64,000 nt of DNA from Pseudomonadota bacterium (GCA_043825875.1 JBDRRF010000018.1:23761-87760), one strand, 5' to 3'; counted from the first letter of the stretch, positions 1-12,601 are shown. Notes: a model not told the origin generated them from the sequence alone. Program-made: numbers and translations.

Positions 1-165
1 AGTAGTTATAAAGCTCTGGATAACTTTATAAATGTAATGATATCCGGAAAGATTAAAGCATTAGCATTCTATTGTTTTTTTGTTTAGTTATGCAAAGGCT
101 GGGGCTCCTTTAACAAAAGAATTTAGGAAGATATATAATTTACTGCCAAATTATTTGCAATAATA
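1..165 (-). promoter_or_regulatory. Promoter + attI-like module, copy W (cut by the window edge)
   Basis: nt 1-53 align without gaps to 10026-10078 (37/53 identical by hand count, including GATATCCGGAAAGAT). nt 131-165 match 10983-11015. The minus strand reads TTGCAA-N17-TATATA. Confidence 0.6.
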
Positions 166-210
166 AAATGCTTTTAACTTTGCGTATAATTTCCCTTTAG
201 CTTATAGAAA

Positions 211-579
211 TTATTTACCATCACCGATAAGAGGCAATTCTTTTTCCAGGCTGAAAAACACCAGATATTTGCTTTCTTCTCTGGGATATCTTTTTCTAAG
301 TAATGATTTTAATAATTCGGTATCCTGTTCTTCACGTATCTTTTTTAAATAAAGTCTTTTTCCTTTATATCCCGGATCATCTTCGATAAAAAGATAACTT
401 GCATAAGGATTGGATTGAAGATTGTGGTGAGTAAGCCTGTCAAGCATGATGATAGCTATTGTTCCATCTTCAAGAAAATGAGGCCGCGAATATATGGCCG
501 TATTCACCTTTCCATCTTTATCTGCGGTTGCAAACACACTGGTTCCATTTGTACTTTCAAAATATTCTTTGAGTTCCAT
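211..579 (-). CDS. Pyridoxamine 5'-phosphate oxidase-like FMN-binding protein
   Basis: 122 aa; ATADKDGKVN..YSRP and T.HNL..NP.A split-barrel motifs. Confidence 0.8.
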   Translation of the reverse strand: MELKEYFESTNGTSVFATADKDGKVNTAIYSRPHFLEDGTIAIIMLDRLTHHNLQSNPYASYLFIEDDPGYKGKRLYLKKIREEQDTELLKSLLRKRYPREESKYLVFFSLEKELPLIGDGK

Positions 580-781
580 GATATACCCCTTTTTTATTCG
601 ATAAAATATAAATAGTTTGTTTTTCAGACGGCTTAAATGTTAATTATCTGTAAATGCGTTTCTATTTCTTATTAAAATGATAATGGCGAAATAAAAAAGG
701 TCAATCTAAAAATTTCTAAAAAATATTATTGATTACATCTTTTATGAACTCTTACCATAAGGTTTATAAGTTATAGTAAAA

Positions 782-811
782 CTGGATACCGGATCGTAGT
801 CCGGCATGACG
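782..811. repeat. Solo CGTC-type REP half-element
   Basis: CTGGATACCGGATCGTAGTCCGGCATGACG resembles the right arm of the REP doublet at 21834-21861. Confidence 0.6.
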
Positions 812-835
812 GTGAGACTTGAGTGGAGGAAAAGT

Positions 836-1621
836 ATGGGAAAACTTGATGGAAAAGTTGCTGTTATTACCGGTGCAGGCCGTGGGATAGGAAAAGCTAC
901 GGCACAACTTTTTTCCAGAGAAGGTGCATCGGTTGTAATAAATGATACCGATGAAATTGTTGCTGCAAAATCAGCTAAAGATATAGAAGATTCCGGTGGT
1001 AAGGCCATTTCTTGCGTTGCTGATATAGTAAATCCTGAAGATGCTCAGAGGCTAATGGATACCGCTATTGAGAAATTTGGTGCACTGAATATTCTTGTCA
1101 ATTGTGCAGGTATCACTCGTGATGCCCCAATCCATAAAATGACCGATTTGCAGTGGGATATGGCAATAGATGTAAATCTTAAAGGAACTTTCAATTGTAT
1201 AAGAGCAGCCGCTAAATATATGCGAATAAAAGGGCATAACGGCCGTATTATTAATATATCCTCAATATCAGGAGTAAAAGGTGCGGCTACCCAGGCAAAT
1301 TATGCTTCCGCCAAGGGTGGAATCATTTCGCTGACCAAAGTGGTAGCGCATGAATGGGAACGATTTGGAATCACCTGCAACTGTATTGCTTACGGTCCCG
1401 TGGACACCCGGCTCACCAGAGCAAGGGAAGAGCAGGAAGAAGAAGTCGCTGGTGAAAAACTGGGAGTGCCGTTAAAAACACGCAATGATATGATGGAGCG
1501 ATACGACGGCAGAATTATGTCGCCGGAGGATGCGGCCCATCCAATTTTGTTTTTCGCCCTGGATGAATCATGGTGCATAAACGGGAACTGTCTCCAGGCA
1601 GCTCTCGGCGGTTTTTCTTAA
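836..1621 (+). CDS. SDR family oxidoreductase (FabG-like)
   Basis: TGAGRGIG, NCAG and YASAK motifs; GGAGG RBS before ATG 836. Confidence 0.9.
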   Translation: MGKLDGKVAVITGAGRGIGKATAQLFSREGASVVINDTDEIVAAKSAKDIEDSGGKAISCVADIVNPEDAQRLMDTAIEKFGALNILVNCAGITRDAPIHKMTDLQWDMAIDVNLKGTFNCIRAAAKYMRIKGHNGRIINISSISGVKGAATQANYASAKGGIISLTKVVAHEWERFGITCNCIAYGPVDTRLTRAREEQEEEVAGEKLGVPLKTRNDMMERYDGRIMSPEDAAHPILFFALDESWCINGNCLQAALGGFS

Positions 1622-1799
1622 AAAAGCCTTATAAGCGAATTTATAATTTTACTTAAAACTACATATTATATATAGGTGAACCAAGGAGAATAACTATCAG
1701 AATTACCAATTAAAAACTACTCTCAAATTTCTCCTTAGAAAAGTATAAACGGAGTATCCGATCTAAAATGTAACCGATGAGTTGCGCACTGCTCACTAC

Positions 1800-1833
1800 T
1801 TCCCCATTAGAAAAGGGGGATAAAGGGGGTTGT
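1800..1833. repeat. Left inverted repeat flanking the DUF559 pseudogene
   Basis: TTCCCCATTAGAAAAGGGGGATAAAGGGGGTTGT is an imperfect reverse complement of 2197-2228; a related copy lies at 46659-46688. Confidence 0.75.
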
Positions 1834-1834
1834 G

Positions 1835-2221
1835 ATGAAAATTTTATATAACCCGAAATTGAAGGCTCTATAACGAAAACTCAGAAAGCAAGGTATTTTA
1901 TCAGAGGTTTTACTCTGGGAACAATTGAAAAATAGAAAAATGAAGGGCTATCAGTTTATGAGGTAAAAGCCTATCGGGAATTATATCGTTGATTTTTATT
2001 GCAGCAAACTAAAACTGGTAATTGAAATTGATGGAGAAACTCATAATAATAGATTGTTTTATGATAAGAACCGACAGCAGGCATTGGAGGCTGAGGGTTT
2101 AACTGTTTTAAGGTTTAATGATAAAGATGTAAAAAAAGATATAGGAAGTGTTTTAACGACTATCGAAGGATGGGTTGAAAGAAATATGAAGACAGAACAA
2201 CCCCCTAACCCCCTTTGTTAA
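1835..2221 (+). pseudogene. DUF559 (Vsr-like/YcjD) endonuclease pseudogene
   Basis: Reads MKILYNPKLKAL*RKLRK..EVLLW..FMR*KPIGNYIVDFYC..LVIEIDGETH..GLTVLRF; in-frame TAA at 1871 and 1964. Confidence 0.9.
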
Positions 2222-2228
2222 GGGGGAA
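2197..2228. repeat. Right inverted repeat flanking the DUF559 pseudogene
   Basis: ACAACCCCCTAACCCCCTTTGTTAAGGGGGAA. Confidence 0.75.
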
Positions 2229-2427
2229 TTAAAGCGGTACTTCCTTTATTTCGAGATAATTCACTTGGGTTTACCTTTTATATTATAAGGTTGGTCATAT
2301 TAAGCCCCAATGCGGTTAACCTGTTAGAAACGTATGCACCATTGAATTTTAAGCTTTTTTAGTGTACTTTAAAATAATCGAAGATGTTTTATCTTTGAAA
2401 TAATACAAATACAAACCTGAGGAAATA

Positions 2428-4170
2428 ATGAGCAACGAAGATAACCATAATAAAAATATGAACAAAGCATCCGGTACAGTTGAGGCAGAACCTGTTGCCC
2501 CTCCGAATTTTATCCGAAATATTATTTCTAATGACCTTAGCTCCAATAAGAACAACGGCAGGGTTATGACTAGATTTCCACCTGAACCAAATGGCTATCT
2601 TCATATAGGGCATGCAAAATCAATCTGTTTAAATTTTGGTCTTGCCGAAGAATATAAAGGGCTTTGCAATCTCAGGTTTGACGATACAAATCCTGCTAAA
2701 GAAGAAGTCGAATATGTGGATTCGATAAAAGAAGATGTAAAATGGCTGGGCTTTGACTGGGAAAACCGACTTTATTATGCATCGGATTATTTTGAAAAAC
2801 TTTACGAATACGCGCTGAATCTGATCAAAAAAGGCAAAGCCTATGTATGTAGCTTAAATGCTGAAGAAATAAGAAAATATCGTGGCACACTCACAGAGCC
2901 TGGCATTGAAAGCCCTTACAGAAGCCGCAGTATTGAAGAAAATACTGACTTGTTTGAAAAAATGAAAAATGGTGATTTTGAAAACGGATCGCATGTTCTT
3001 CGCGCCAGGATTGATATGTCGTCTCCTAATCTGAATATGCGTGATCCTGTGCTATACCGCATTTTACATGCCGATCATCACCGTACATGCAAAAAATGGT
3101 GCATTTATCCCATGTATGATTTTGCACATGGTCTTTCCGATTCTATTGAAGGCGTTACGCATTCGATATGCACCCTTGAATTTGAAGATCATCGCCCTCT
3201 TTATGACTGGATTCTTGATGCACTGGATATCTTTCATCCGCAGCAGATCGAATTTGCCCGTCTTAACCTTAACTATACGGTATTGAGCAAAAGAAAACTT
3301 CTTGAACTTGTAGAAGGAGAATTTGTTTCCGGATGGGATGATCCGAGAATGCCTACAATCTCTGGTTTGAGAAGAAGAGGTTATACGCCTGATGCTATCA
3401 GAAATTTTTGTGAGCGTATAGGAGTAGCAAAAAGCAACAGCATTGTCGATATGGCCCTGCTGGAATTTTGCATTCGTGAAGATTTGAACAAACGTGCTCC
3501 TCGTGTTATGGGTGTACTAAATCCGTTAAAAATTGTTATTGATAACTATCCCGAAGATCTTGTTGAAGAATTTGATGCGATTAATAATCCGGAAGATTCT
3601 TCAATGGGTACCAGAAAGATTCCATTTTCCCGTGAAATTTATATCGAGAAAGAAGATTTTAGGGAAGATCCGCCGAAAAAATTCTTTCGCCTTTCACTGG
3701 GGCGTGAGGTGCGCCTCAAGCAGGCATATTATATTACCTGTGTAAGTATTGACAAAGATGAAAACACAGGTGAAATAACACAGCTTCATTGCACTTACGA
3801 TCCGAAAACAAAAGGCGGCTATTCGGATGATGGTAGAAAAGTCAAGGGTACATTGCACTGGGTTTCGGCTGCACATTGCGTGGAAGCCAAAGTACGTTTG
3901 TATGACCGTCTGTTTGTGAAAGAAAATCCGGCTGATGGAAAAGACGGTAGTAATTTTAAAGATTTTATAAACCCAGGATCTCTTGAAATACTCAAATCGT
4001 GTAAAGTCGAACCAGGTCTTTTAAAGGCAACGCCAGGAAGTATATGCCAGTTTGAAAGACTTGGTTATTTCTGTGTTGACAGCAAAGAATCATCTAAAGA
4101 CTTACTAGTATTTAACAGAACGGTCACGCTTAGAGATTCATGGGCTAAAATTGAACAAAAACAAAAGTAA
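2428..4170 (+). CDS. glnS: Glutamine--tRNA ligase
   Basis: [16 protein letters not shown] (HIGH), [14 protein letters not shown]. Confidence 0.97.
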
Positions 4171-4171
4171 T

Positions 4172-4314
4172 GAGCCACTTTCAAAACGTTTCAGTTTGGT
4201 CAAGCTCAAGGCGGGAGAAAATTTTAACCACAGGAATACATTTAGTATTTCGAGGATTAAAATTTGAGCCCAACGCTTAAGATCGGCCAAAATGGGGCGT
4301 TTTGAAACTGGCTC
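4172..4314 (+). mobile_element. MITE family A, copy 1 (143 bp)
   Basis: TIRs GAGCCACTTTCAAAACG / CGTTTTGAAACTGGCTC; TAAT duplicated on both sides; four more copies in the window. Confidence 0.85.
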
Positions 4315-4332
4315 TAATTATTAGGTGATTAT

Positions 4333-4521
4333 ATGGAAATAGCCAAAGTTGTAAAAAAATACAGTACAAAGAATCAGCCAAGTGATTTTCGCTATTGGCA
4401 GTCGAAATCATATGAAGAGCGATTGTATGCATTAGAACAAATAAGAAAAGAATACAACTTATGGAGATATAATGCTGAGCAAGGATTTCAAAGAGTTTAT
4501 AGAATTATTAAATACAAATAA
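4333..4521 (+). CDS. Small helical protein, probable partner of the downstream nucleotidyltransferase
   Basis: 62 aa, D..YWQSKSYEERL.ALEQIR; AGGTG RBS; overlaps the next gene by 50 nt. Confidence 0.65.
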   Translation: MEIAKVVKKYSTKNQPSDFRYWQSKSYEERLYALEQIRKEYNLWRYNAEQGFQRVYRIIKYK

Positions 4522-4909
4522 AGTAAAATATCTGGTGGTTGGTGGATATGCCGTTGCTCTTCACGGTCATCCGCGTTATACTAAGGACATTGATATCTGG
4601 ATTGAACTATCTCCTGATAATGCTGCCAGAATTTTAATAGCGCTTGATAATTTTGGTTTTGGCTCGCTTAATCTCAAACCGGAGGATTTTCTTGAAAAAG
4701 ATCAAATTATACAATTGGGATATCCTCCGAATCGTATTGATTTATTAACTACGTTAACGGATTTAAGTTTTGAAGATTGCTACAATGCAAAAGTCCAAAT
4801 TTTACTTGGAGATGTGGAAATTAATTTTATTGATATCGAAAATTTAAAGAAAAATAAGCGTGCTACCGGTCGGTTACAGGATATGGCTGATGTGGAGAAT
4901 TTAGAATAA
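4472..4909 (+). CDS. Nucleotidyltransferase family protein (PolB/AbiEii-like fold)
   Basis: YLVVGGYAV..HG.PR.TKDID motif; C-terminal K.A.GR.QD..D. Confidence 0.8.
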   Translation: MLSKDFKEFIELLNTNKVKYLVVGGYAVALHGHPRYTKDIDIWIELSPDNAARILIALDNFGFGSLNLKPEDFLEKDQIIQLGYPPNRIDLLTTLTDLSFEDCYNAKVQILLGDVEINFIDIENLKKNKRATGRLQDMADVENLE

Positions 4910-4911
4910 AA

Positions 4912-5358
4912 ATGTATCAGATTATAATTAAATGGTTAGTGCTTACCGCAGCAATAATAGTTACTTCTTATTTAACCCGCGGTATAGCTGTTGATGGTAT
5001 TTTAACGGCTTTTTTTGCCGCTGCGGTTCTGGGAATCTTGAATGTTTTTTTAAGACCTATCGCTTTAGTATTAACTCTTCCGATTAATATTGTAAGTTTA
5101 GGCTTATTCACTTTTGTTATAAATGCTTTTATGTTGATTTTAACATCAAAACTTATACCCGGCTTTCATGTTAATGGGTTTTTTGCCGCAATAATCGGTT
5201 CATTATTTATAAGTTTTGTCAGTTGGCTTATTAATCTTTTAGCCGAAGAAAAAGTAACAATTATAAATAAAGAAACCAAGGTAGAAACCAGGGTAAAAAA
5301 TAATACGAACTCAGAATATATAGATTTAAACGACAAAGGTGACGGCAAATGGGAATAA
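4912..5358 (+). CDS. 4-TM membrane protein (YvlD / phage-holin superfamily IV)
   Basis: LGILN..LRP...LTLP..I.SLGLF.FVINA signature. Confidence 0.85.
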   Translation: MYQIIIKWLVLTAAIIVTSYLTRGIAVDGILTAFFAAAVLGILNVFLRPIALVLTLPINIVSLGLFTFVINAFMLILTSKLIPGFHVNGFFAAIIGSLFISFVSWLINLLAEEKVTIINKETKVETRVKNNTNSEYIDLNDKGDGKWE

Positions 5359-5523
5359 AAATATTTGTAATAACAAAAAAGTATATTTTTGCTTGACCTT
5401 TAATAATATGTATTTTACATAATCAGATGTAGCTATTGTTTATCTGCTGTTACTTCAGCGCCATGCAAAGGTTTTGAGATCTTTGACATGAAACAAAAAC
5501 CGTTTTTTAAAAGGAGATTTATT

Positions 5524-5724
5524 TTGGCGACAGGTATTGTAAAATGGTTCAACGATAAAAAGGGGTTTGGTTTTATCGAAAAGGAAGAGGGCGGGGATGT
5601 TTTTGTTCATCATTCAGCGATTACAATGTCAGGTTTCAGAACCCTTGCTGAGGGTGACCGGGTTAGCTTTGATGTAGAAGAGGGCAAACAAGGTCCTGCA
5701 GCAAAGAACGTGGAAAAAATCTAA
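5524..5724 (+). CDS. Cold-shock protein (CspA family), TTG start
   Basis: [15 protein letters not shown] (RNP1), DVFVHHSAI (RNP2); AGGAG RBS at ~5511. Confidence 0.95.
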
Positions 5725-5738
5725 TTTTCAGTCATCTT

Positions 5739-5980
5739 AAAAAGGCATCTTAAATATTTATTATCTGTTAGGCCTATAGCAGGTATAAAAATAAATCTCA
5801 TAGACGGATAATTCAAGCGTATAAATCTGATTTGTTCTTTGTTCGATCAGCCTGCTATTATACATGCTTGATCTCTCCCCTTATGCCTTCTGAAGAAAAA
5901 AGTGGGTATCTATCCGTAAAGGGAGAAGTGTTTGTTTTAATATATTTTATTTTTATTAATACTTAATGGTGCCTTTTTTT
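5739..5980. ncRNA. Candidate structured RNA: closing stem, two stem-loops, two pseudoknot pairings
   Basis: Complementary segments: 5739-5758/5958-5978, 5776-5783/5851-5858, 5804-5810/5911-5917, 5813-5824/5858-5871, 5827-5831/5846-5850, 5874-5883/5917-5926. Confidence 0.45.
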
Positions 5981-6084
5981 GCTTAAATGTTAGTTATTTA
6001 TAATTTCCCATCGTTTTTGTTTTTCCTAAAAATGTGTTATTTTCTCATACAAGCATGATGCAACTTATTGTTTTTAATCAACTT

Positions 6085-6226
6085 GAGCCACTTTCAAAAC
6101 GCCCCATTTTGGCCGATCTCAGCGTTGGGCTCAAATTTCAATCCTCGAAATACTCACTGTATTCCTGTGGTTGATATTTTCGCCCGCCTTGAGCTTGACC
6201 AAACTGAAACGTGTTGAAAGTGGCTC
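6085..6226 (-). mobile_element. MITE family A, copy 2
   Basis: Near-identical reverse complement of 4172-4314. Confidence 0.85.
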
Positions 6227-6287
6227 AACTCACATAAAAATTTCTTGTCATATAGACGAGCTATGTTCAGTTATTTTTGGGGAAAAC

Positions 6288-7631
6288 ATGCCTGATATAC
6301 TGCTTATTCTGATTTGCCTGCTTGGTATCTTATCTTTAATTCTTATTATTCTCATTTTAAAACGCAAGCCGGAAGATATACAAATAAAGCTTAAAAATAA
6401 TTTTGAAGAACTTGAAAAACATGTGGCAAATATTGAAAGCATCGTAAAAAAAGAGTTTTTCGAAAACCGCAAAGAATATTTCGACAATTCTAAATCTGCC
6501 CGTGAAGAACAGGGTGCTTCATTGAAGGACTTTGGCGATTCACTATCAAAACGAATAGCCGAAATAGCAGGCATGCAGAAAAACCAGCTTGATACCTTTT
6601 CAAAACAACTCCTTGATATGACAAGATTAAACGAAGAAAAGCTTGAGTCTATGCGACTTACAATGGAATCACGCTTAAGTACCATGCAGGAAGAAAACAG
6701 TAAAAAGCTTGAACTAATGCGAGCAACCGTTGACGAAAAACTTCATAATACTCTTGAGACACGTCTTGGAGAATCTTTCAAGCAGGTTAGCGAACGCCTT
6801 GAACAGGTTTACAAAGGCCTTGGAGAAATGAGAAGCCTTGCTACCGGCGTTGGTGATTTAAAAAAGGTGCTTACAAATGTTAAAACCCGCGGAACCTGGG
6901 GAGAAATTCAGCTTGGTGCACTTCTCGAGCAAATTCTTTCACCCGAACAGTACGAAGCAAATGTTGCAACTAAAAAAGACAGCCGGGAAAGAGTGGAATT
7001 TGCCATAAAACTTCCGGGCCAAGACCCTACAGGACACCATGTTGTCTGGATGCCTATAGATGCAAAATTTCCGCAGGAAGATTATCAGCGTCTTCTTGAT
7101 GCGCAAGATGCCGCCGATAAAGATCTTGCCGAAAGATCTCTTAAAAATCTTGAAATAAGAATAAAGGCCGAAGCAAAAGATATAAGAGATAAATATTTAT
7201 GCCCTCCCGATACAACCGATTTCGCCCTTATGTTTATTCCTACAGAAGGCCTGTATGCGGAGATAATCCGGCGACCCGGGCTGTGCGATATCTTACAGCG
7301 GGAGTATAGAATTGTGGTTACAGGGCCCACGACCCTTGCTGCTTTATTAAACAGTCTGCAGATGGGATTTAAAACTCTTGCGATTGAAAAACGTTCAAGT
7401 GAGATCTGGCAGCTTTTGGGAACCGTTAAATCCGAGTTCAGAAAATTCGGTGATGTTCTGGCAAAAACCAAAAAGAAGCTTGATGAAGCTTCAAAAACAA
7501 TTGAAAACGCCGAGACAAGAACCCGCGCCATTGAACGCAGTCTTAGGTCAGTACAGGAAACGCCTTCACCGTCTTCGGAATTGCCTGGATGCGAAACAAA
7601 TGAAGTATCTATACAAGTACCAAGCGACTAA
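6288..7631 (+). CDS. rmuC: DNA recombination protein RmuC
   Basis: N-terminal TM, coiled coil, KTRGTWGEIQL, PIDAKFP, DFALMFIPTEGLY; the ORF extension to 6171 is partly MITE sequence. Confidence 0.93.
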   Translation: MPDILLILICLLGILSLILIILILKRKPEDIQIKLKNNFEELEKHVANIESIVKKEFFENRKEYFDNSKSAREEQGASLKDFGDSLSKRIAEIAGMQKNQLDTFSKQLLDMTRLNEEKLESMRLTMESRLSTMQEENSKKLELMRATVDEKLHNTLETRLGESFKQVSERLEQVYKGLGEMRSLATGVGDLKKVLTNVKTRGTWGEIQLGALLEQILSPEQYEANVATKKDSRERVEFAIKLPGQDPTGHHVVWMPIDAKFPQEDYQRLLDAQDAADKDLAERSLKNLEIRIKAEAKDIRDKYLCPPDTTDFALMFIPTEGLYAEIIRRPGLCDILQREYRIVVTGPTTLAALLNSLQMGFKTLAIEKRSSEIWQLLGTVKSEFRKFGDVLAKTKKKLDEASKTIENAETRTRAIERSLRSVQETPSPSSELPGCETNEVSIQVPSD

Positions 7632-7662
7632 GTACTCCATTTCATAATTTTGGTGCCATATC

Positions 7663-7696
7663 GACCATGAGACTGTGGCACAATAGTCTCATGGTC
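7663..7696. terminator. Hairpin between convergent genes
   Basis: Perfect 12-bp inverted repeat GACCATGAGACT / AGTCTCATGGTC. Confidence 0.6.
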
Positions 7697-7756
7697 AAAT
7701 TTACAAATACGTAACCGAATTCATGAAACTCTACTAAGGCTCCGATAAAGTAACTG

Positions 7757-8179
7757 TCAGCTTATTGCTGCCGTTAATTTATCTCCGTCCACATTGGCAG
7801 TATATTGTGTTACCGGATGAGGAGCAGGGCCATAAATTTTATTTCCGCTAAAATCATAAGTGGACTTGCTTACGCTGCAACATTGAACAGTATTTGTCCC
7901 GGGAACAGGATCAAGACGGCGGTGTCCTACATGCGAGCAACGGTTCTTGAAAACATGATGCTTTCCGTCTTCTCCAAGAAATACAAGTATTCGTACCGGA
8001 AGGTCTTTTCCTTCCAGACGAACAGCACCACCCGGTTGTTTAAGCTCAGGAGCTTTATTTAAGTCAAGAGTAAGTTTGCCGCCGGAATAGCTCCAGCAAG
8101 TTGAGTCTTTGGGCTCAGATGTGGCAGGACGGCCCAGCATACGTTGAAAGAAACTTCTTTTCAAAATTTTGACATCCAT
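7757..8179 (-). CDS. Rieske-like [2Fe-2S] domain protein
   Basis: NRCSH..RRLD and CCS..S.YD..G....GPA; second ligand motif is atypical. Confidence 0.7.
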   Translation of the reverse strand: MDVKILKRSFFQRMLGRPATSEPKDSTCWSYSGGKLTLDLNKAPELKQPGGAVRLEGKDLPVRILVFLGEDGKHHVFKNRCSHVGHRRLDPVPGTNTVQCCSVSKSTYDFSGNKIYGPAPHPVTQYTANVDGDKLTAAIS

Positions 8180-8257
8180 ATTTTTTCTCCTTTAACCCCG
8201 ATTTGCTTTGATGTTTAGATGATAAGGTAACAGTAAAAATTTATTGTTTTCAATGAA

Positions 8258-8686
8258 TCATTTGCTTTTTTTCTCAATTTTTTCTTTAATCCCGGAATCA
8301 AATTTTTCTTTATTGATTATAAATCTCTCATGTTTTCCTTTTGCTATCATATCTATATCATCATACGCCTCTACTTCAAAAACCAAGCGTCGTCTGTCAA
8401 CCTCGATAAGTTTTACTTTCGCTGTTGCCTCAAATCCTGCCGGAGTTGCAGCAGTATGCTTTAAATCAAAATGCGTACCCACAGTCTGTTCAGCCGGCCA
8501 GTCAAGGTAAGGATTTAAGGCCTTAATACATGCCCACTCCAAAAATCCAACCAGAAATCCTGTGGCAAATACTTCCGGCATTTGCTGGAATTCTTCAGAT
8601 TCGGGATAAAGAGCCGGGACAAGCTTTGATTTTGAAATTTGGAATTTAAATTCGTATTCAATTCCGGGTTTCAGTGTATCTTTCAT
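8258..8686 (-). CDS. Thioesterase, FlK-like hotdog fold
   Basis: VFATGFLVGFLE, TVGT...HTAATP.G, G.HERFII. Confidence 0.9.
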   Translation of the reverse strand: MKDTLKPGIEYEFKFQISKSKLVPALYPESEEFQQMPEVFATGFLVGFLEWACIKALNPYLDWPAEQTVGTHFDLKHTAATPAGFEATAKVKLIEVDRRRLVFEVEAYDDIDMIAKGKHERFIINKEKFDSGIKEKIEKKSK

Positions 8687-9040
8687 TTACAGTCTCCAGT
8701 TTATTACTTTTGTTGAACATAATCAGGATATAATGGAAACATTTAACCACGCTTTACCTGCAAAACCTTTATGAGGGTAACTTGCCGGAGCAATCGGGTT
8801 AATTATAAGATACTAAAGTATCTGTTTTTCGAATAGTTATATCTTTACAGCAATTTTTCTTTAAAATCAAATATGTTTATATTCAAAAATTAAAGATTGG
8901 ATAGTCTGCCCCAATTGAAGATAAATAAACTGGCCAAGAAGTAAAATAAAGAGAGCGCTCCATGTTATGAATATTTGAGTCCTATAAATTTTATCAAGAT
9001 AGACCCATAAAGGGATTTTGTCTTTTTTCATAATCGTAAG

Positions 9041-9169
9041 GTATGACGGGGCCAGTCACCAAGCGGCGGAAAATAAAGCAAAACGCCTTAAAAGGAAGAT
9101 AAGTCAATTTGCGACTTACTTCCAAAAACCGCTTGCCATAGCCGCTCTTTTGAAGTGGCTTTGTTAAGT
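9041..9169 (-). repeat. attC-like site 1 (129 bp)
   Basis: Minus strand: ACTTAAC AAAGCCACTTCA..AGCGGC ... GCCGCT..TGACTGGCCCC GTCATAC; imperfect hairpin; R' reads GTC instead of GTT; cassette stop TAA lies inside R''. Confidence 0.75.
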
Positions 9170-9469
9170 GTGATCTTTGTTACGGCAGTGCTTTTCAATA
9201 AACACTTTCAAAAAGCTATCCGTTTCTTCATTATCGGCTAACCAATCGTAGCCAAACCAATTATCCCATCCGGACAAAATTATCATTTTCCCACGATAAT
9301 AACTTGGATGTATCGCTTGATCTGTAACTGGTGGTATATATGTCCCTTTTCTGTGGAAACCATACCTGAGCATCAGCAAAAGGCTGACCTTCCATGAACG
9401 CCAAAATGAAAAGGTGCTTATTCTTAATCTTCCATTATGTGTAGTATGGAACTCAAATCCTTTATCCAT
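9164..9469 (-). CDS. Gene-cassette hypothetical protein
   Basis: ORF bounded by complementary core sites GTTAAGTG (9486-9479) and CACTTAAC (9170-9163). Confidence 0.75.
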   Translation of the reverse strand: MDKGFEFHTTHNGRLRISTFSFWRSWKVSLLLMLRYGFHRKGTYIPPVTDQAIHPSYYRGKMIILSGWDNWFGYDWLADNEETDSFLKVFIEKHCRNKDHT

Positions 9470-9479
9470 ATATGACTTC

Positions 9480-9591
9480 ACTTAACGCCGCAAATCACGG
9501 GCCGGGCGACGAATCACGAAAGCGGTTTAAAAAAAGAAAGCCTTCAATCACTGAACGCTCCCGCCCGGATCAGTGCATTTGTTTGTTCGGC
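9480..9591 (-). repeat. attC-like site 2 (112 bp)
   Basis: Minus strand: GCCGAAC AAACAAATGCAC..CCGGGCG ... CGCCCGG..GTGATTTGCGGC GTTAAGT; AACAAA...GGCGTT ends; extra base in the left arm. Confidence 0.85.
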
Positions 9592-10008
9592 TTTCGGGTT
9601 ATTAAATTCGTCAGCGGTCCACCATATTATTTCCTTGATGTTCGATTCTGCTGACAAAATATTATTCAAATAATTGGCTATCTCTGTGACTTTTTCAACT
9701 GTTCTTATTTTCTTGAAAAACCGTCTGATAAAAGGCTTACTTGGCTCTATAAAACATAAGAATCCATCTGGATATTCATCGTAATTACCGCATCCAATCC
9801 AGAGCTTAAAACTATCGTTCTTTATTGGGATAACCCAGCCCCAATCTTCAGAAAATATTTCCTCAACTGGAACAGCATATCCCTTCAGACCGTTGTAAAT
9901 ATATTCAGCAAGTCTTTTGCCCCAGCGATGTGGATTAACGTCATTTTCTTCACCAGAGTAAGCTGGAAATAAGTCAGATTTGAATTCTACATATGTTTTC
10001 ATATTCAT
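9544..10008 (-). CDS. Gene-cassette hypothetical protein (reads into its attC)
   Basis: Bounded by GTTCGGC (10024-10018) and GCCGAAC (9591-9585); EDWGW and WIGCGN motifs. Confidence 0.75.
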   Translation of the reverse strand: MNMKTYVEFKSDLFPAYSGEENDVNPHRWGKRLAEYIYNGLKGYAVPVEEIFSEDWGWVIPIKNDSFKLWIGCGNYDEYPDGFLCFIEPSKPFIRRFFKKIRTVEKVTEIANYLNNILSAESNIKEIIWWTADEFNNPKAEQTNALIRAGAFSD

Positions 10009-10017
10009 TGAAATCAC

Positions 10018-10188
10018 GCCGAACAAGTTGTTGAGCATTTCTGTATATCTTCATATTTAGAGAGATATCCGGAAAGATAAAAATTATTTTAATTTTTCTA
10101 AACCAATCGACAATCGTTTAATTTAATTTGAAATTACATATAATTTATTGGCTAAAATTTCTATAGTATATTTTTATGTGGGATCGTC
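10018..10188 (-). promoter_or_regulatory. Promoter + attI-like module, copy X
   Basis: Minus strand ends ..CAACAACTTGTTCGGC at the cassette start with no attC hairpin upstream; homologous to 10865-11034 and 1-165. Confidence 0.65.
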
Positions 10189-10295
10189 TTATATTTCAGA
10201 ATCTGTTAGCCCTGCTTCTTTAAATCCTTTTTTCTTAAACAGCAGCTATCGCAAAGGCCGCATGTGCTGCCATCAGGATCTGGATCGTAACAGCT
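10189..10295 (-). pseudogene. queC: Diverged duplicate of the queC 3' end
   Basis: SCYDPDPDGSTCGLCDSCCLRK / GFKEAGLTDSEI* versus Que[36 protein letters not shown]; 1-nt deletion in the A-run. Confidence 0.9.
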
Positions 10296-10305
10296 GTTCC
10301 GGCAG

Positions 10306-10378
10306 GTGTAACACTCAATTAACCGGAGGGCCTGAAACGCCGCGGTAGCGTTAAAGGCCGGTCAGCTTTAAGTTACAG
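10306..10378 (-). repeat. attC-like site 3 (73 bp)
   Basis: Minus strand: CTGTAAC TTAAAGCTGACCGGCC..AACGC..GCGTT..GGCC.CCGGTTAATTGAGT GTTACAC, directly after the DUF2283 stop. Confidence 0.65.
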
Positions 10379-10379
10379 G

Positions 10380-10607
10380 CTAAGCAATTTTCTTTTTTAG
10401 AATATCTTTGTCCAAATCAAGGGTGTAAGATAAGATCGTATCGATATTCATTTTCTTGGATGCCTTAAGGATTTCAATACCTGTAAATTTTCCATCAGTT
10501 GTAGTATCAACATTTATACCCTCTGCGATTTCAATAACACCATCTGGTTTTTGATCACCAAGGCTAAGATATAAAGCATCTACTTCTTCATCATAATGTA
10601 CTTTCAT
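10380..10607 (-). CDS. DUF2283 family putative antitoxin
   Basis: MKVHYDEEVDALYL and G...GIEIL.AS signature. Confidence 0.9.
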   Translation of the reverse strand: MKVHYDEEVDALYLSLGDQKPDGVIEIAEGINVDTTTDGKFTGIEILKASKKMNIDTILSYTLDLDKDILKKKIA

Positions 10608-10831
10608 TATTTCCTTCCTTTCTTCAAAGGATAATTCGTAACCACGGTTATAATGTTTCCCTCAACAATTACGACAATCTTTATGGGATATTTAAATCCG
10701 GGAACATCTTTGATTAATTCATGTTCACCATCATGCAATTCCAATCCAATTAATATTTCCTCAATGGTTGATTCCGGTATATTATAAAGTTTTGATCTTC
10801 GTTTTGCATGTCGTGAGTAGTGAATTATCAT
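10607..10831 (-). CDS. DUF4258-like putative toxin (RelE-like fold)
   Basis: YSRHAKRR and VVTNYP; TAATG coupling to DUF2283. Confidence 0.75.
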   Translation of the reverse strand: MIIHYSRHAKRRSKLYNIPESTIEEILIGLELHDGEHELIKDVPGFKYPIKIVVIVEGNIITVVTNYPLKKGRK

Positions 10832-10864
10832 TTTATATTGCCCCCTACATCAATTTTCTCACAT

Positions 10865-11034
10865 ACCAGACAAGTTAATTGTATAGTTCTGTATATCTTC
10901 ACAGTTATAGTATTATCAGGAAAGACAAAAACTATTTACATTCTTATAATCAATCAGCAATGATCTGTTATTATATGAAAATATATATAATTTATTGGCA
11001 GATATTTCAATAATATATTTTATGTGGAAACGCT
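10865..11034 (-). promoter_or_regulatory. Promoter + attI-like module, copy Y (after intact queC)
   Basis: Minus strand TTGAAA-N17-TATATA; ends AATTAACTTGTCTGG (GTC variant); homologous to copies X and W. Confidence 0.6.
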
Positions 11035-11715
11035 TTATATTGCAGGATCTGTTAACCCTGCTTCTTCAAACCCTTTTTTCCTTAAAAAGCAGCTATCGCA
11101 AAGACCGCATGCGCTGCCGTCGGGGCCGGGATCATAGCAGCTATGGGTTAGTGAATAATCAACTCCGAGTTCTATTCCTTTCTTGATAATCTGGGCTTTT
11201 GTCATTTTAATTAAGGGAGTATTAATTTTGAGGCGATTTTGACCTTCTACCCCGGCTTTTGTTGCAAGGTTTGCCATGCGTTCGAATGCTTTGATAAATT
11301 CGGGCCTGCAATCGGGATAGCCGCTGTAATCAATAGCATTAACACCTATAAATATATCAACAGATTTCATTACTTCGGCCCAGGCAAGTGCATGAGATAG
11401 GAAAATGGTGTTTCTTGCAGGAACATATGTAACAGGTATTCCTTTGCTTATTGAATTAAGCGATCTTGATTTAGGGACTTTAATATCAGCTGTTAAAGCT
11501 GATCCACCGATTTTATCAAGATCAATATTTATTATAATATGCTTCTTTGCTTTAAATACTTCTGCTATCTTTTTTGCCGCATTGAGTTCATGAAAATGGC
11601 GTTGACCGTAAAAAAAACTCATGCCAAAAAGATCAAACCCTTCATGTTTTGCAATAGCCATTACGGTTGTGGAATCAAGGCCTCCGCTTAAAAGTACTAT
11701 GGCTTTTTTTCGCAT
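11035..11715 (-). CDS. queC: 7-cyano-7-deazaguanine synthase
   Basis: SGGLDS, TYVPARN, YPDCR, SCY..CG.CDSC. Confidence 0.97.
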
Positions 11716-11734
11716 TTTATTTCCCTTAAGTTAC

Positions 11735-12379
11735 TTATACGCCTCTTAATATATCTGGCCAGATTATTTTATGTAATTGAATTTGGAGCCGAACACTTAA
11801 TTTATCTTTTAGTATCCATTTCGCCAAATCCGATAATTCTATTGTATTATAGATAGGAGAAAAAAGAATATTTCCCCGGGGAAAGATTTCAGGTATTTGT
11901 TTTACGATTTTTTTTGCAAAATCATAATCATTTCTATTTCCCATTATAAATTTGACCTGGTCTTTTTTGCCAAGCTTATTTAAATTATCAAGATCGTTTT
12001 TTGAAGACATTTCGCTTGACGGGCATTTTATATCAACAATTTTAATGCATCGTTTATCGATACTGCTTATATCAATACTTCCGTTTGTTTCAAGCAAAAC
12101 AGTATAATTGTCATCTAAAAGTTTTTCTATTAATACCGGGGCTTCTTCCTGTAATAAAGGTTCTCCACCGGTAATTTCAACCAAAGAGCAGCCAAAACCT
12201 GAAATTTTTGTTATAAGGTTATCTATTTCTATTTCAGTACCTTCATCATATGCATATTGTGTGTCACAGTAATTGCATCTTAAGTTGCAGCCGGTAAGCC
12301 TTATAAAAGTGCAAGGTAACCCGCTGTATAAAGATTCACCCTGTATGCTGTAAAAAATTTCATTAACTAATAATGTCAT
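11735..12379 (-). CDS. queE: 7-carboxy-7-deazaguanine synthase (radical SAM)
   Basis: EIFYSIQGE, CNLRCNYCDT, TGGEP, QLHK. Confidence 0.95.
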   Translation of the reverse strand: MTLLVNEIFYSIQGESLYSGLPCTFIRLTGCNLRCNYCDTQYAYDEGTEIEIDNLITKISGFGCSLVEITGGEPLLQEEAPVLIEKLLDDNYTVLLETNGSIDISSIDKRCIKIVDIKCPSSEMSSKNDLDNLNKLGKKDQVKFIMGNRNDYDFAKKIVKQIPEIFPRGNILFSPIYNTIELSDLAKWILKDKLSVRLQIQLHKIIWPDILRGV

Positions 12380-12601
12380 ATCCCTAAGCCTAATTGCATA
12401 AATTTCTTATAACTGTTCATAAAGACATTGTTTATTTACATCAATATTATAATAAATAGCAAACCATAATGGCCGTTTCTATTGTAATTAAAAAACTGCT
12501 TGACATGCATGATTCGAAAATATAAAAATATAGGTAAGTTTTAGTCAATTTTGACAAAGACTTATCAAAAACATTTATTAAGGACAAAATACTAAGGAAA
12601 T

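Follow-up and report, generated by a model that had tools for sequence, protein, structure and literature searches.

What is a promoter-like, attI-like sequence doing at several places along a chromosome where no integron integrase gene lies beside it? The question is raised by the window analyzed here, a 64,000-nt stretch of a Pseudomonadota genome (GCA_043825875.1, JBDRRF010000018.1:23761-87760; G000:C18:23761-87760 in our numbering, where G000 is the genome under study and C numbers are its contigs), which contains three copies, termed W, X and Y, of one non-coding block. Integrons are usually pictured as one integrase (encoded by intI), one integrase-proximal recombination site (attI), one cassette promoter (Pc) and one array of cassettes, while attC site clusters that have no integron integrase (CALINs) are pictured as silent stores or debris. 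From sequence comparison, we propose that each block is a Pc-attI module, that is, an outward cassette promoter together with a double-stranded insertion site, of one clade of integron integrases; we would put the probability of this reading at roughly 0.7. An earlier note on this DNA had suggested a "distributed integron", in which solo sites are served in trans by one integrase. The comparisons support many solo capture sites with few integrases elsewhere. The single integrase did not survive: integron integrases number four in this genome, and attI/Pc families at least two. That the promoters fire and that the solo modules recombine in trans are predictions of this reading.

The key copy of the module lies outside the window. 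Searches of the whole assembly with blastn and nhmmer recovered 16 full and about seven partial copies, one of which (C79:67755-67924) abuts an intI, as the earlier note had anticipated for some copy. It fills the interval from the start codon of this integrase (IntI), at a distance of 58 nt, to the cassette that opens a small attC-bearing array, and thus occupies the attI/Pc position. The 506-aa protein scores 383.6 bits against TIGR02249 (cut-off 265), with the catalytic HxxR and Y motifs aligned. Its gene (L010:2177-3697, equivalent to G000:C79:66176-67696, minus strand) also encodes an N-terminal extension of ∼190 residues, within which lies a second SAM-like core-binding stretch (PF13495, two stretches). 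The remaining 15 full copies, W, X and Y included, are solo modules without an adjacent intI. The TIGR02249 search identified four integron integrases in the genome, on C51, C68, C107 and C79. None was found anywhere on the 87.8-kb contig C18, in agreement with the earlier note, and C18 does not show the intI next to an array that marks a complete integron.

The same association recurs in other genomes. The module stands divergently beside C79-type integrases at G016:C192, G008:C38 and G008:C37 in sister species (the last intI has an internal stop), and, of 48 loci around IntI relatives in public assemblies, four (L104, L105, L098 and L126) carry it on the opposite strand, upstream of the integrase. 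Two of the latter integrases are 83% identical to the C79 IntI. An intI neighbor, as expected of attI, is therefore found for the C79 copy and for seven other loci, W, X and Y themselves having none. The nearest relatives come from assemblies titled Desulfobacteraceae and Desulfobacterium. Full-length relatives at ∼50% identity are common in metagenome-assembled genomes titled Desulfobacterales, Nitrospirota and Thermodesulfovibrionia.

Within the window, an nhmmer profile trained on 13 family copies outside C18 gives only three matches in the 64 kb at E<=10, all on the minus strand: W at 188-1 (E 1.1e-22), X at 10160-10015 (E 2.8e-22) and Y at 11021-10841 (E 2.4e-14). A repeat search links 14-76, 10039-10101 and 10887-10949, as well as 120-150, 10125-10155 and 10972-11002. 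Both searches place the three blocks where the earlier note had them and on the same strand, far above chance. Pairwise identities (alignment A4) are 69.9% for X-Y, 59.4% for X-W and 58.7% for Y-W. The three modules are as follows.

1..188, minus strand: module W, with promoter-like sequence TTGCAA-N17-TATATA, box CCGGATAT...TTATCCAG and attI-like core; its junction, ACTTG|TGGAAT, falls 1-5 nt past the window start.
10015..10170, minus strand: module X, with a degenerate TAGAAA-N17-TATGTA; the core ends in ACTTG|TTCGGC, with the crossover between plus-strand 10024 and 10023.
10841..11021, minus strand: module Y, with TTGAAA-N17-TATATA; the core ends in ACTTG|TCTGGT, the junction G being plus-strand 10871.

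In a 15-copy alignment, read in the cassette direction, four elements make up the module: TTATTGCAAA...N...AATAGATTATATATA, a box reading TTGCAA-N17-TATATA in most copies; an AT-rich spacer of two length classes; the conserved boxes AATCTTTCCGGATATCA ... AAGTTATCCAGAAC, forming an imperfect inverted repeat; and a core ...TATAAT(T/A)ACTTG|TT, where the bar marks the junction. The motifs named in the earlier note are conserved columns of this alignment, and its sigma70-like box (TTGAAA/TTGCAA-N17-TATATA, degenerate in X) is as described. Similarity among the copies ends at ACTTG|TT, and the sequence past the junction is unrelated between copies (alignments of 15 and 16 copies). The GTT core is thus a property of the family and of X (G|TTCGGC), from which W (G|TGGAAT) and Y (G|TCTGGT) depart. 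The inverted repeat CCGGATA...TATCCAG shows no significant covariation (66.4% paired cells vs 64.8% in shuffles; slid controls 23-47%), and is therefore read as a predicted protein-binding palindrome and not as a folded structure. Rfam has no match at E<=0.1 in window 1-12500, modules included.

If the module is an insertion site, its junctions should record the cassettes that entered there. A cassette inserted by attI x attC recombination should start with bases complementary to R'' of its own attC. Of the 10 modules with a canonical GTT, seven, X included, have a 7-mer after the junction G that is exactly reverse-complementary to R'' of the first attC downstream, compared with 2/90 in a cross-control using the 7-mers of other modules. 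The corresponding figures in the sister species G008 are 8/12 and 11/130. In the window, this mark is present at X and absent at W and Y. The claim of the earlier note that X ends exactly in the GTT core of the first cassette is borne out: the module ends in ACTTG|TTCGGC, and GCCGAAC opens an attC hairpin 433 nt downstream. The order G|TT, open reading frame (ORF), attC is found after X and likewise after the copies on C109, C91 (two copies), C97, C24 and C48. The row that follows X comprises the features below.

9480..10023, minus strand: first cassette at X, with an ORF of ∼153 aa of no Pfam family (ATG near 10005) and a 112-nt attC at 9591-9480 (R'' GCCGAAC ... R' GTTAAGT).
8741..9479, minus strand: small co-oriented ORFs beyond the X cassette (9164-9481 and 8867-9031), with a 64-nt hairpin with paired ends at 8804-8741.

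The attC at 9591-9480 folds as DNA with paired ends at -19.8 kcal/mol (z -1.64), its arm duplex reaching -16 to -17 kcal/mol. A second attC, at 10307-10378, folds with paired ends at -12.2 kcal/mol (z -2.41), a result equaled by 2 of 200 shuffles. The stretch 8741..9479 is probably one or two more decayed cassettes. The minus-strand row continues with a gene resembling the fluoroacetyl-CoA thioesterase FlK (8258-8686) and a Rieske-domain gene (7757-8179); no recognizable attC lies between these two (window 7757-8686), which may be old cassettes or host genes.

A cassette also follows W. The earlier note had predicted the bases AAC just left of the window and a cassette beyond. The bases are wrong, the plus strand reading ...CCACA there, and the cassette exists: beyond the W junction come an ORF of 132 aa, a hairpin of 122 nt whose ends pair (TTATAAC...GTTATAT) and a DUF3795 ORF. 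Across the genome, strong AAC...GTT hairpins number 13 in total over the 48 kb formed by the 3-kb stretches downstream of the 16 modules, vs 1.94 expected; four occur upstream, three of them from the X/Y tandem described below. The C109 module heads nine sites over 9 kb, and reading by eye gave at least seven attCs after the C24 module. The window itself fits the definition of a CALIN, with attCs at 9591-9480 and 10378-10307, the extra hairpin at 8804-8741 and no TIGR02249 match on C18.

The attCs in the window were called by hairpin criteria and by eye, and not with IntegronFinder. A whole-genome scan for attC arm duplexes was noisy (446 sites at -12.5 kcal/mol), and a hairpin finder demanding complementary R'' and R' boxes overlooked real attCs, most of its output being an unrelated hairpin repeat of 124 nt. 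Two further candidates in the window were set aside. The sequence at 9166-9036, once labeled attC2, does not fold with paired ends and is not claimed as an attC; a match of an attC covariance model, R1, at 4006-4070 inside the 3' end of glnS (18 bits, E 0.011) is weak and was taken as chance.

Could the block be a mobile promoter or leader element, resembling a miniature inverted-repeat transposable element or carried by cassettes, and unrelated to site-specific recombination? It is indeed multi-copy, AT-rich and ∼160 bp long, with a conserved promoter-like box, in a genome where other small repeats, the 124-nt hairpin element for one, abound. However, it has neither terminal inverted repeats nor target duplications, no Rfam family matches it, its similarity stops at G|TT, it holds a fixed place beside intI in at least eight loci, and its junction 7-mers match the R'' of attC. 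We consider such an origin extremely improbable.

The relatives show how the modules and their arrays behave over short evolutionary distances. A module model, R2, which is sequence-only, was applied to five species of the genus with 68 candidates scored per genome, so that the counts for the relatives are lower bounds. It matched 22 modules in G000, at least 24 in G008, at least 13 in G011, at least 12 in G016 and at least 9 in G013. Integrases above the TIGR02249 cut-off number 4, 1, 1, 3 and 0 in the same species, and matches at E<=1e-30 number 0-5 per genome among the 17 genomes searched.

Between G000 and G008, module-headed arrays at orthologous sites are either present in one and absent from the other or carry different cassettes, within flanks that are ∼93-97% identical. 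At the C97 locus, 92.7% homology covers 930 nt of flank plus the module, of which it leaves out the last 4 nt; the first cassettes differ between the two genomes, and each agrees with its own junction. The C24 locus has flanks that are 96-97% identical, but between them lie 4.4 kb in one genome and, in the other, 2.1 kb of unrelated DNA, and at the C109 locus the module subfamily itself differs. On C146 of G008 (L082, L179), a module with ∼9.1 kb is inserted 1 nt past a stop codon, where G000 has 44 nt (C8:17063-17107). The left end of this insert is a perfect 30-nt hairpin with TCTAAC...GTTAGA ends; no clear attC was found at its right end.

The W site is empty in G008, where a PNPOx-like orthologue, 94% identical, runs straight into a convergent gene and R2 finds nothing better than E 0.4. 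Past queC, the gene next to Y, the first 330 nt in G008 and 12 other relatives showed nothing module-like to the eye, nor did R2 give a match there among the 68 candidates scored per genome. A link between G008 C116 and the flank of W was dropped, because this flank (window ∼1790-2230) is a multi-copy repeat. The repeat lies between a gene of the short-chain dehydrogenase/reductase family (SDR) and glnS, has dozens of short matches at 83-97% identity in the sister genomes, and is probably built from small hairpin elements.

The loci at which whole interiors differ invite another explanation, that entire arrays are exchanged by homologous recombination through the conserved flanks and the module, cassettes having been inserted elsewhere, at integrase-linked sites. 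Replacement of the entire interior at C24 between conserved flanks, and the change of module subfamily at C109, would fit. At C97, by contrast, homology breaks 4 nt before the module end and not in the flank, and the match of 7 of 10 junctions to R'' of their own first cassettes is unexplained unless the module was the insertion site somewhere. Exchange would still require intI-less modules to be common in the population. We judge it quite improbable as the whole account.

The same comparisons bear on whether the solo modules are only relics of once-complete integrons that have lost intI and are now unused. Integrase loss is named as one origin of CALINs in the relevant passages of Cury et al. 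(2016, PMC4889954), and traces of it occur here. The solo copy at C83:69302 retains ∼22 intI codons and a ruined core, a copy at C79:105.4k has an intI-like start, the copies on C97, C91a and C109 hold a remnant of the intI ribosome-binding region, several cores are degenerate, and the integrases of G013 are split. As a general account, however, this is unlikely. Solo copies outnumber the linked one by at least 15 to 1 in G000, with similar ratios in four sister species, and the filled and empty sites, at ∼93-97% identical flanks, bear no trace of intI. Units that already lack intI recur: C97, C91a and C109 share a terminator, a remnant of ∼100 nt and a module, with the ∼175 nt of terminator and remnant ∼90% identical at the three loci, and the same unit is also present in G008. 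Most copies are conserved from the -35 box to G|TT and match R'' exactly at the junction, and first cassettes differ at orthologous solo modules.

We therefore return to the Pc-attI reading, against which the following points count. At least two solo copies, that at C83:69302, where a neighboring SRAP-family gene truncates the intI remnant, and the second-family copy at C79:105.4k, keep first intI codons and thus arose by deletion of intI and not by spread. W and Y have non-canonical junctions (G|TG, G|TC) whose 7-mers find no matching R'' downstream, and the G|TT core is missing at the junction in 4 of the 16 copies (C83, C91b, C111 and C66b), so some modules are probably dead. For half of the 16 modules, our heuristic detects no strong hairpin within 3 kb, although all eight still precede co-oriented ORFs, many of them short. 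A scan with a generic sigma-70 consensus returned 37 sites vs 37.2 expected in such AT-rich DNA, with the boxes of W, X and Y not among them. No full C79-type integrase was found in G011, which has at least 13 modules, and G013, with at least nine, has an integrase only as split pieces. Homologous exchange of entire arrays could account for the differences between species, with no local insertion needed. The counts also have their limits: those of R2 for the relatives are minima; R1, built from eight seeds of one subfamily, found ∼20 sites and missed long-loop attCs, both of those in the window among them, which makes it too narrow for a census; and the genomes are draft assemblies, that of G000 in 118 contigs. 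Concerning G013, both integron integrase genes (G013:C202:622-1547 and G013:C155:539-1478) are in two adjacent pieces, and are thus likely frameshifted or mis-assembled.

If the modules are what we propose, the cognate IntI made from C79 would bind the conserved boxes of any module in the cell and recombine its G|TT core with a free, circular cassette at the folded attC of the latter. The cassette would land directly after the module and would then be transcribed from the module promoter. The module and its array may in addition act as a movable unit, in that recombination of an attC with a secondary site upstream of the module would yield a circle carrying the module, and this circle could re-enter at another module or secondary site. 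Such movement would explain the presence or absence of arrays between close species as well as the order of features around queC, which are listed here with the other host genes next to the modules.

211..579, minus strand: PNPOx-like host gene, 122 aa (Pfam PF01243, PNPOx_N, 24.5 bits, under the 28.1 cut-off), with its stop ∼44 nt upstream of module W.
11735-12379, minus strand: queE, preceding native queC.
11035..11715, minus strand: native queC, 226 aa (Pfam QueC, 250.8 bits), with its stop 17 nt upstream of module Y.
10380..10870, minus strand: cassette at Y, with overlapping ORFs 10831-10607 (74 aa, no family) and 10607-10380 (75 aa, DUF2283).
10307..10378, minus strand: attC of this two-gene cassette, 72 nt (R'' CTGTAAC ... 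R' GTTACA).
10190..10306, minus strand: queC', a pseudogene fragment representing the 3'-terminal ∼110 nt of a diverged queC, frameshifted by a 1-nt deletion and fused to R' (G|TTACAC) of the preceding attC.

The upstream neighbors are those given in the earlier note: a weak PNPOx_N match, a queC fragment and QueC. Its generalization that the block always follows the 3' end of a host gene holds for W, X and Y and fails genome-wide, where 8 of the 16 modules follow a co-oriented ORF and the other 8 face a divergent one. The two ORFs of the Y cassette are arranged like a toxin-antitoxin pair.

X and Y are part of a diverged duplication (10018-10300 vs 10865-11145, 72-84% identical) that spans the module and the 3' end of queC (its last ∼110 nt). 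Read along the minus strand, the order is native queC, Y (G|TCTGG), the two-ORF cassette, its attC, queC' (G|TTACAC), X (G|TTCGGC) and the X cassettes. R' of the attC is joined within ∼3 nt of the start of queC homology. The queC protein is 99% identical between G000 and G008; the queC end on the Y side differs from G008 queC at 4 of 69 positions and the queC' fragment at ∼10, which identifies the Y-side end as the native one. An earlier model, in which an insertion inside queC had made Y the foreign copy, was overturned by this comparison.

The simplest reading of the arrangement has two steps. In a related genome with the order queC-module, the integrase would have recombined a cassette attC with a secondary site inside queC, releasing a circle [queC' end - module - cassette - attC], and an attI x attI exchange at module Y would have brought this circle into the present chromosome. 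Comparable arrangements exist elsewhere. An attC-like site lies ∼45 nt upstream of the C66a module, so that R' of an attC is joined just upstream of the module there as at X, and C134 of G008 has a tandem copy comprising a fragment of the neighboring gene, an integrase remnant and a module. A broader proposal is that the Pc-attI module is a self-spreading mobile unit, excised with its cassettes by the integrase when an attC recombines at a secondary site just upstream of the promoter, then re-inserted elsewhere in the chromosome, where each insertion would found a further expressed capture site, so that a network of 10-25 pads per genome extends across the genus in at least two families, each served in trans by its own integrase clade. 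We offer this tentatively, as a possibility that has the odds somewhat against it.

The second of these families was found beside other integrases. A stretch of ∼215 nt next to the C51 and C68 integrases, which are 44% identical to the C79 protein, constitutes a different module, with a TTGACA-type box and the end ...AATG|GTTAG. Its copies are the following.

G000:C68:57550-57762 and C51:168739-168950: second-family copies beside integrases.
C79:105394-105588, C76:38955-39043, C35:79962-80048 and C47:10583-10715: second-family solo copies, with no intI beside them.

Similarity in this family again runs from the -35 box to G|TT. The junction matches R'' in two of the four solo copies, and the C76 copy heads a cluster of five hairpin sites. 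The existence of solo copies in this family too indicates that the phenomenon extends beyond one sequence. For the region next to the C107 integrase there is one further partial match, at C57:14341-14507.

Compared with known attI/Pc platforms (attI1/Pc of class 1 integrons, and sedentary chromosomal integrons), the module has the same place in its type copy, between a divergent intI and the first cassette, the same G|TT core at which cassettes join, and an outward promoter-like box. It differs in its number, with ∼16 copies in this genome and 15 of them without intI, in the location of the candidate promoter between intI and attI, and in a sequence unrelated to the attI sites searchable by standard tools. 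The arrays after solo modules fit CALINs as defined by Cury et al. (2016, PMC4889954), being rows of attC-bearing cassettes with no nearby intI. CALINs consist by that definition of attC sites only, however, and are treated there as cut off from Pc, which cannot drive their cassettes; the arrays described here keep a cognate attI and a promoter-like box, and could thus both accept and express cassettes.

CALIN cassettes can be mobilized in trans, according to the portions of PMC9668308 and bioRxiv 10.1101/2025.06.18.660453 that address this. Three other systems come close. A CALIN with its own attI appears once, in the Shewanella prophage M16-3 (Qi et al. 2023, PMC9892861), where, as here, a complete integron and an intI-less array in one genome start with the same attI type. 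The account of that array concerns a single extra copy in a prophage and includes no comparative evidence of turnover, in contrast to the 15-24 copies found genus-wide here. Units of the form attI1-aadB-attI1 are functional, IntI1 having been shown to excise and insert them (Gonzales Machuca et al. 2026, PMC12901181, in its treatment of these units). One cassette likewise lies between two attI copies at Y-cassette-X, at C66b-ORF-C66a and at the C111 pair; unlike these delta-attI cassettes, which sit inside intI-linked class 1/2 integrons and have no promoter part, the second copy at Y-cassette-X carries the queC' fragment of a host gene. Finally, integron integrases insert at non-att "attG" sites and excise "even outside" the insertion point, in the wording of Loot et al. 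(bioRxiv 10.1101/2022.09.11.507474, as far as its relevant passages go). The joining of an attC to an internal queC site (G|TTACAC) and the arrays that begin right after host stop codons fit this behavior, except that the attG work deals with single cassettes entering genomes and the moved unit here appears to include attI and promoter, which would make it a new landing pad. No multi-copy, genus-wide family of intI-less promoter-plus-attI modules was found in the main text of open-access papers and bioRxiv preprints. The present case is best classed as a variant of the integron and CALIN.

The attI is unknown for most integrons and hence not searchable (Cury et al. 2016, PMC4889954, in its discussion of detection), which is part of the reason why CALINs have been taken for stores or debris. 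Here, attI can be defined by homology, and most intI-less arrays of the genome turn out to keep a cognate attI and a promoter box, to bear the signature of direct cassette insertion and to vary among closely related species. Should the pads work in trans, one cell could express the first cassettes of many arrays at once, cassettes could be captured at many chromosomal places, and the CALIN counts in surveys would partly be counts of live platforms. Two integrase clades and two attI families in one genome provide a test system. The method, aligning intI-proximal regions to define attI and then searching genome-wide, follows directly.

The genome contains a further repeat, the 124-nt hairpin element mentioned above (TCAAAACGTTTCAGTTTGG...CGTTTTGA, ∼124 nt). 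It occurs in dozens of near-identical copies, often at contig ends, including C18:7-130. Copies at window positions 4171-4320 and 6080-6240 are inverted with respect to each other, with 107-nt arms that are 93% complementary, and flank three genes, for a nucleotidyltransferase (DUF6036), a holin-like and a cold-shock protein. An ORF of 335 aa at C79:72413-73420, whose N-terminus resembles by eye a Y1/REP-associated transposase, may encode the enzyme that mobilizes this repeat.

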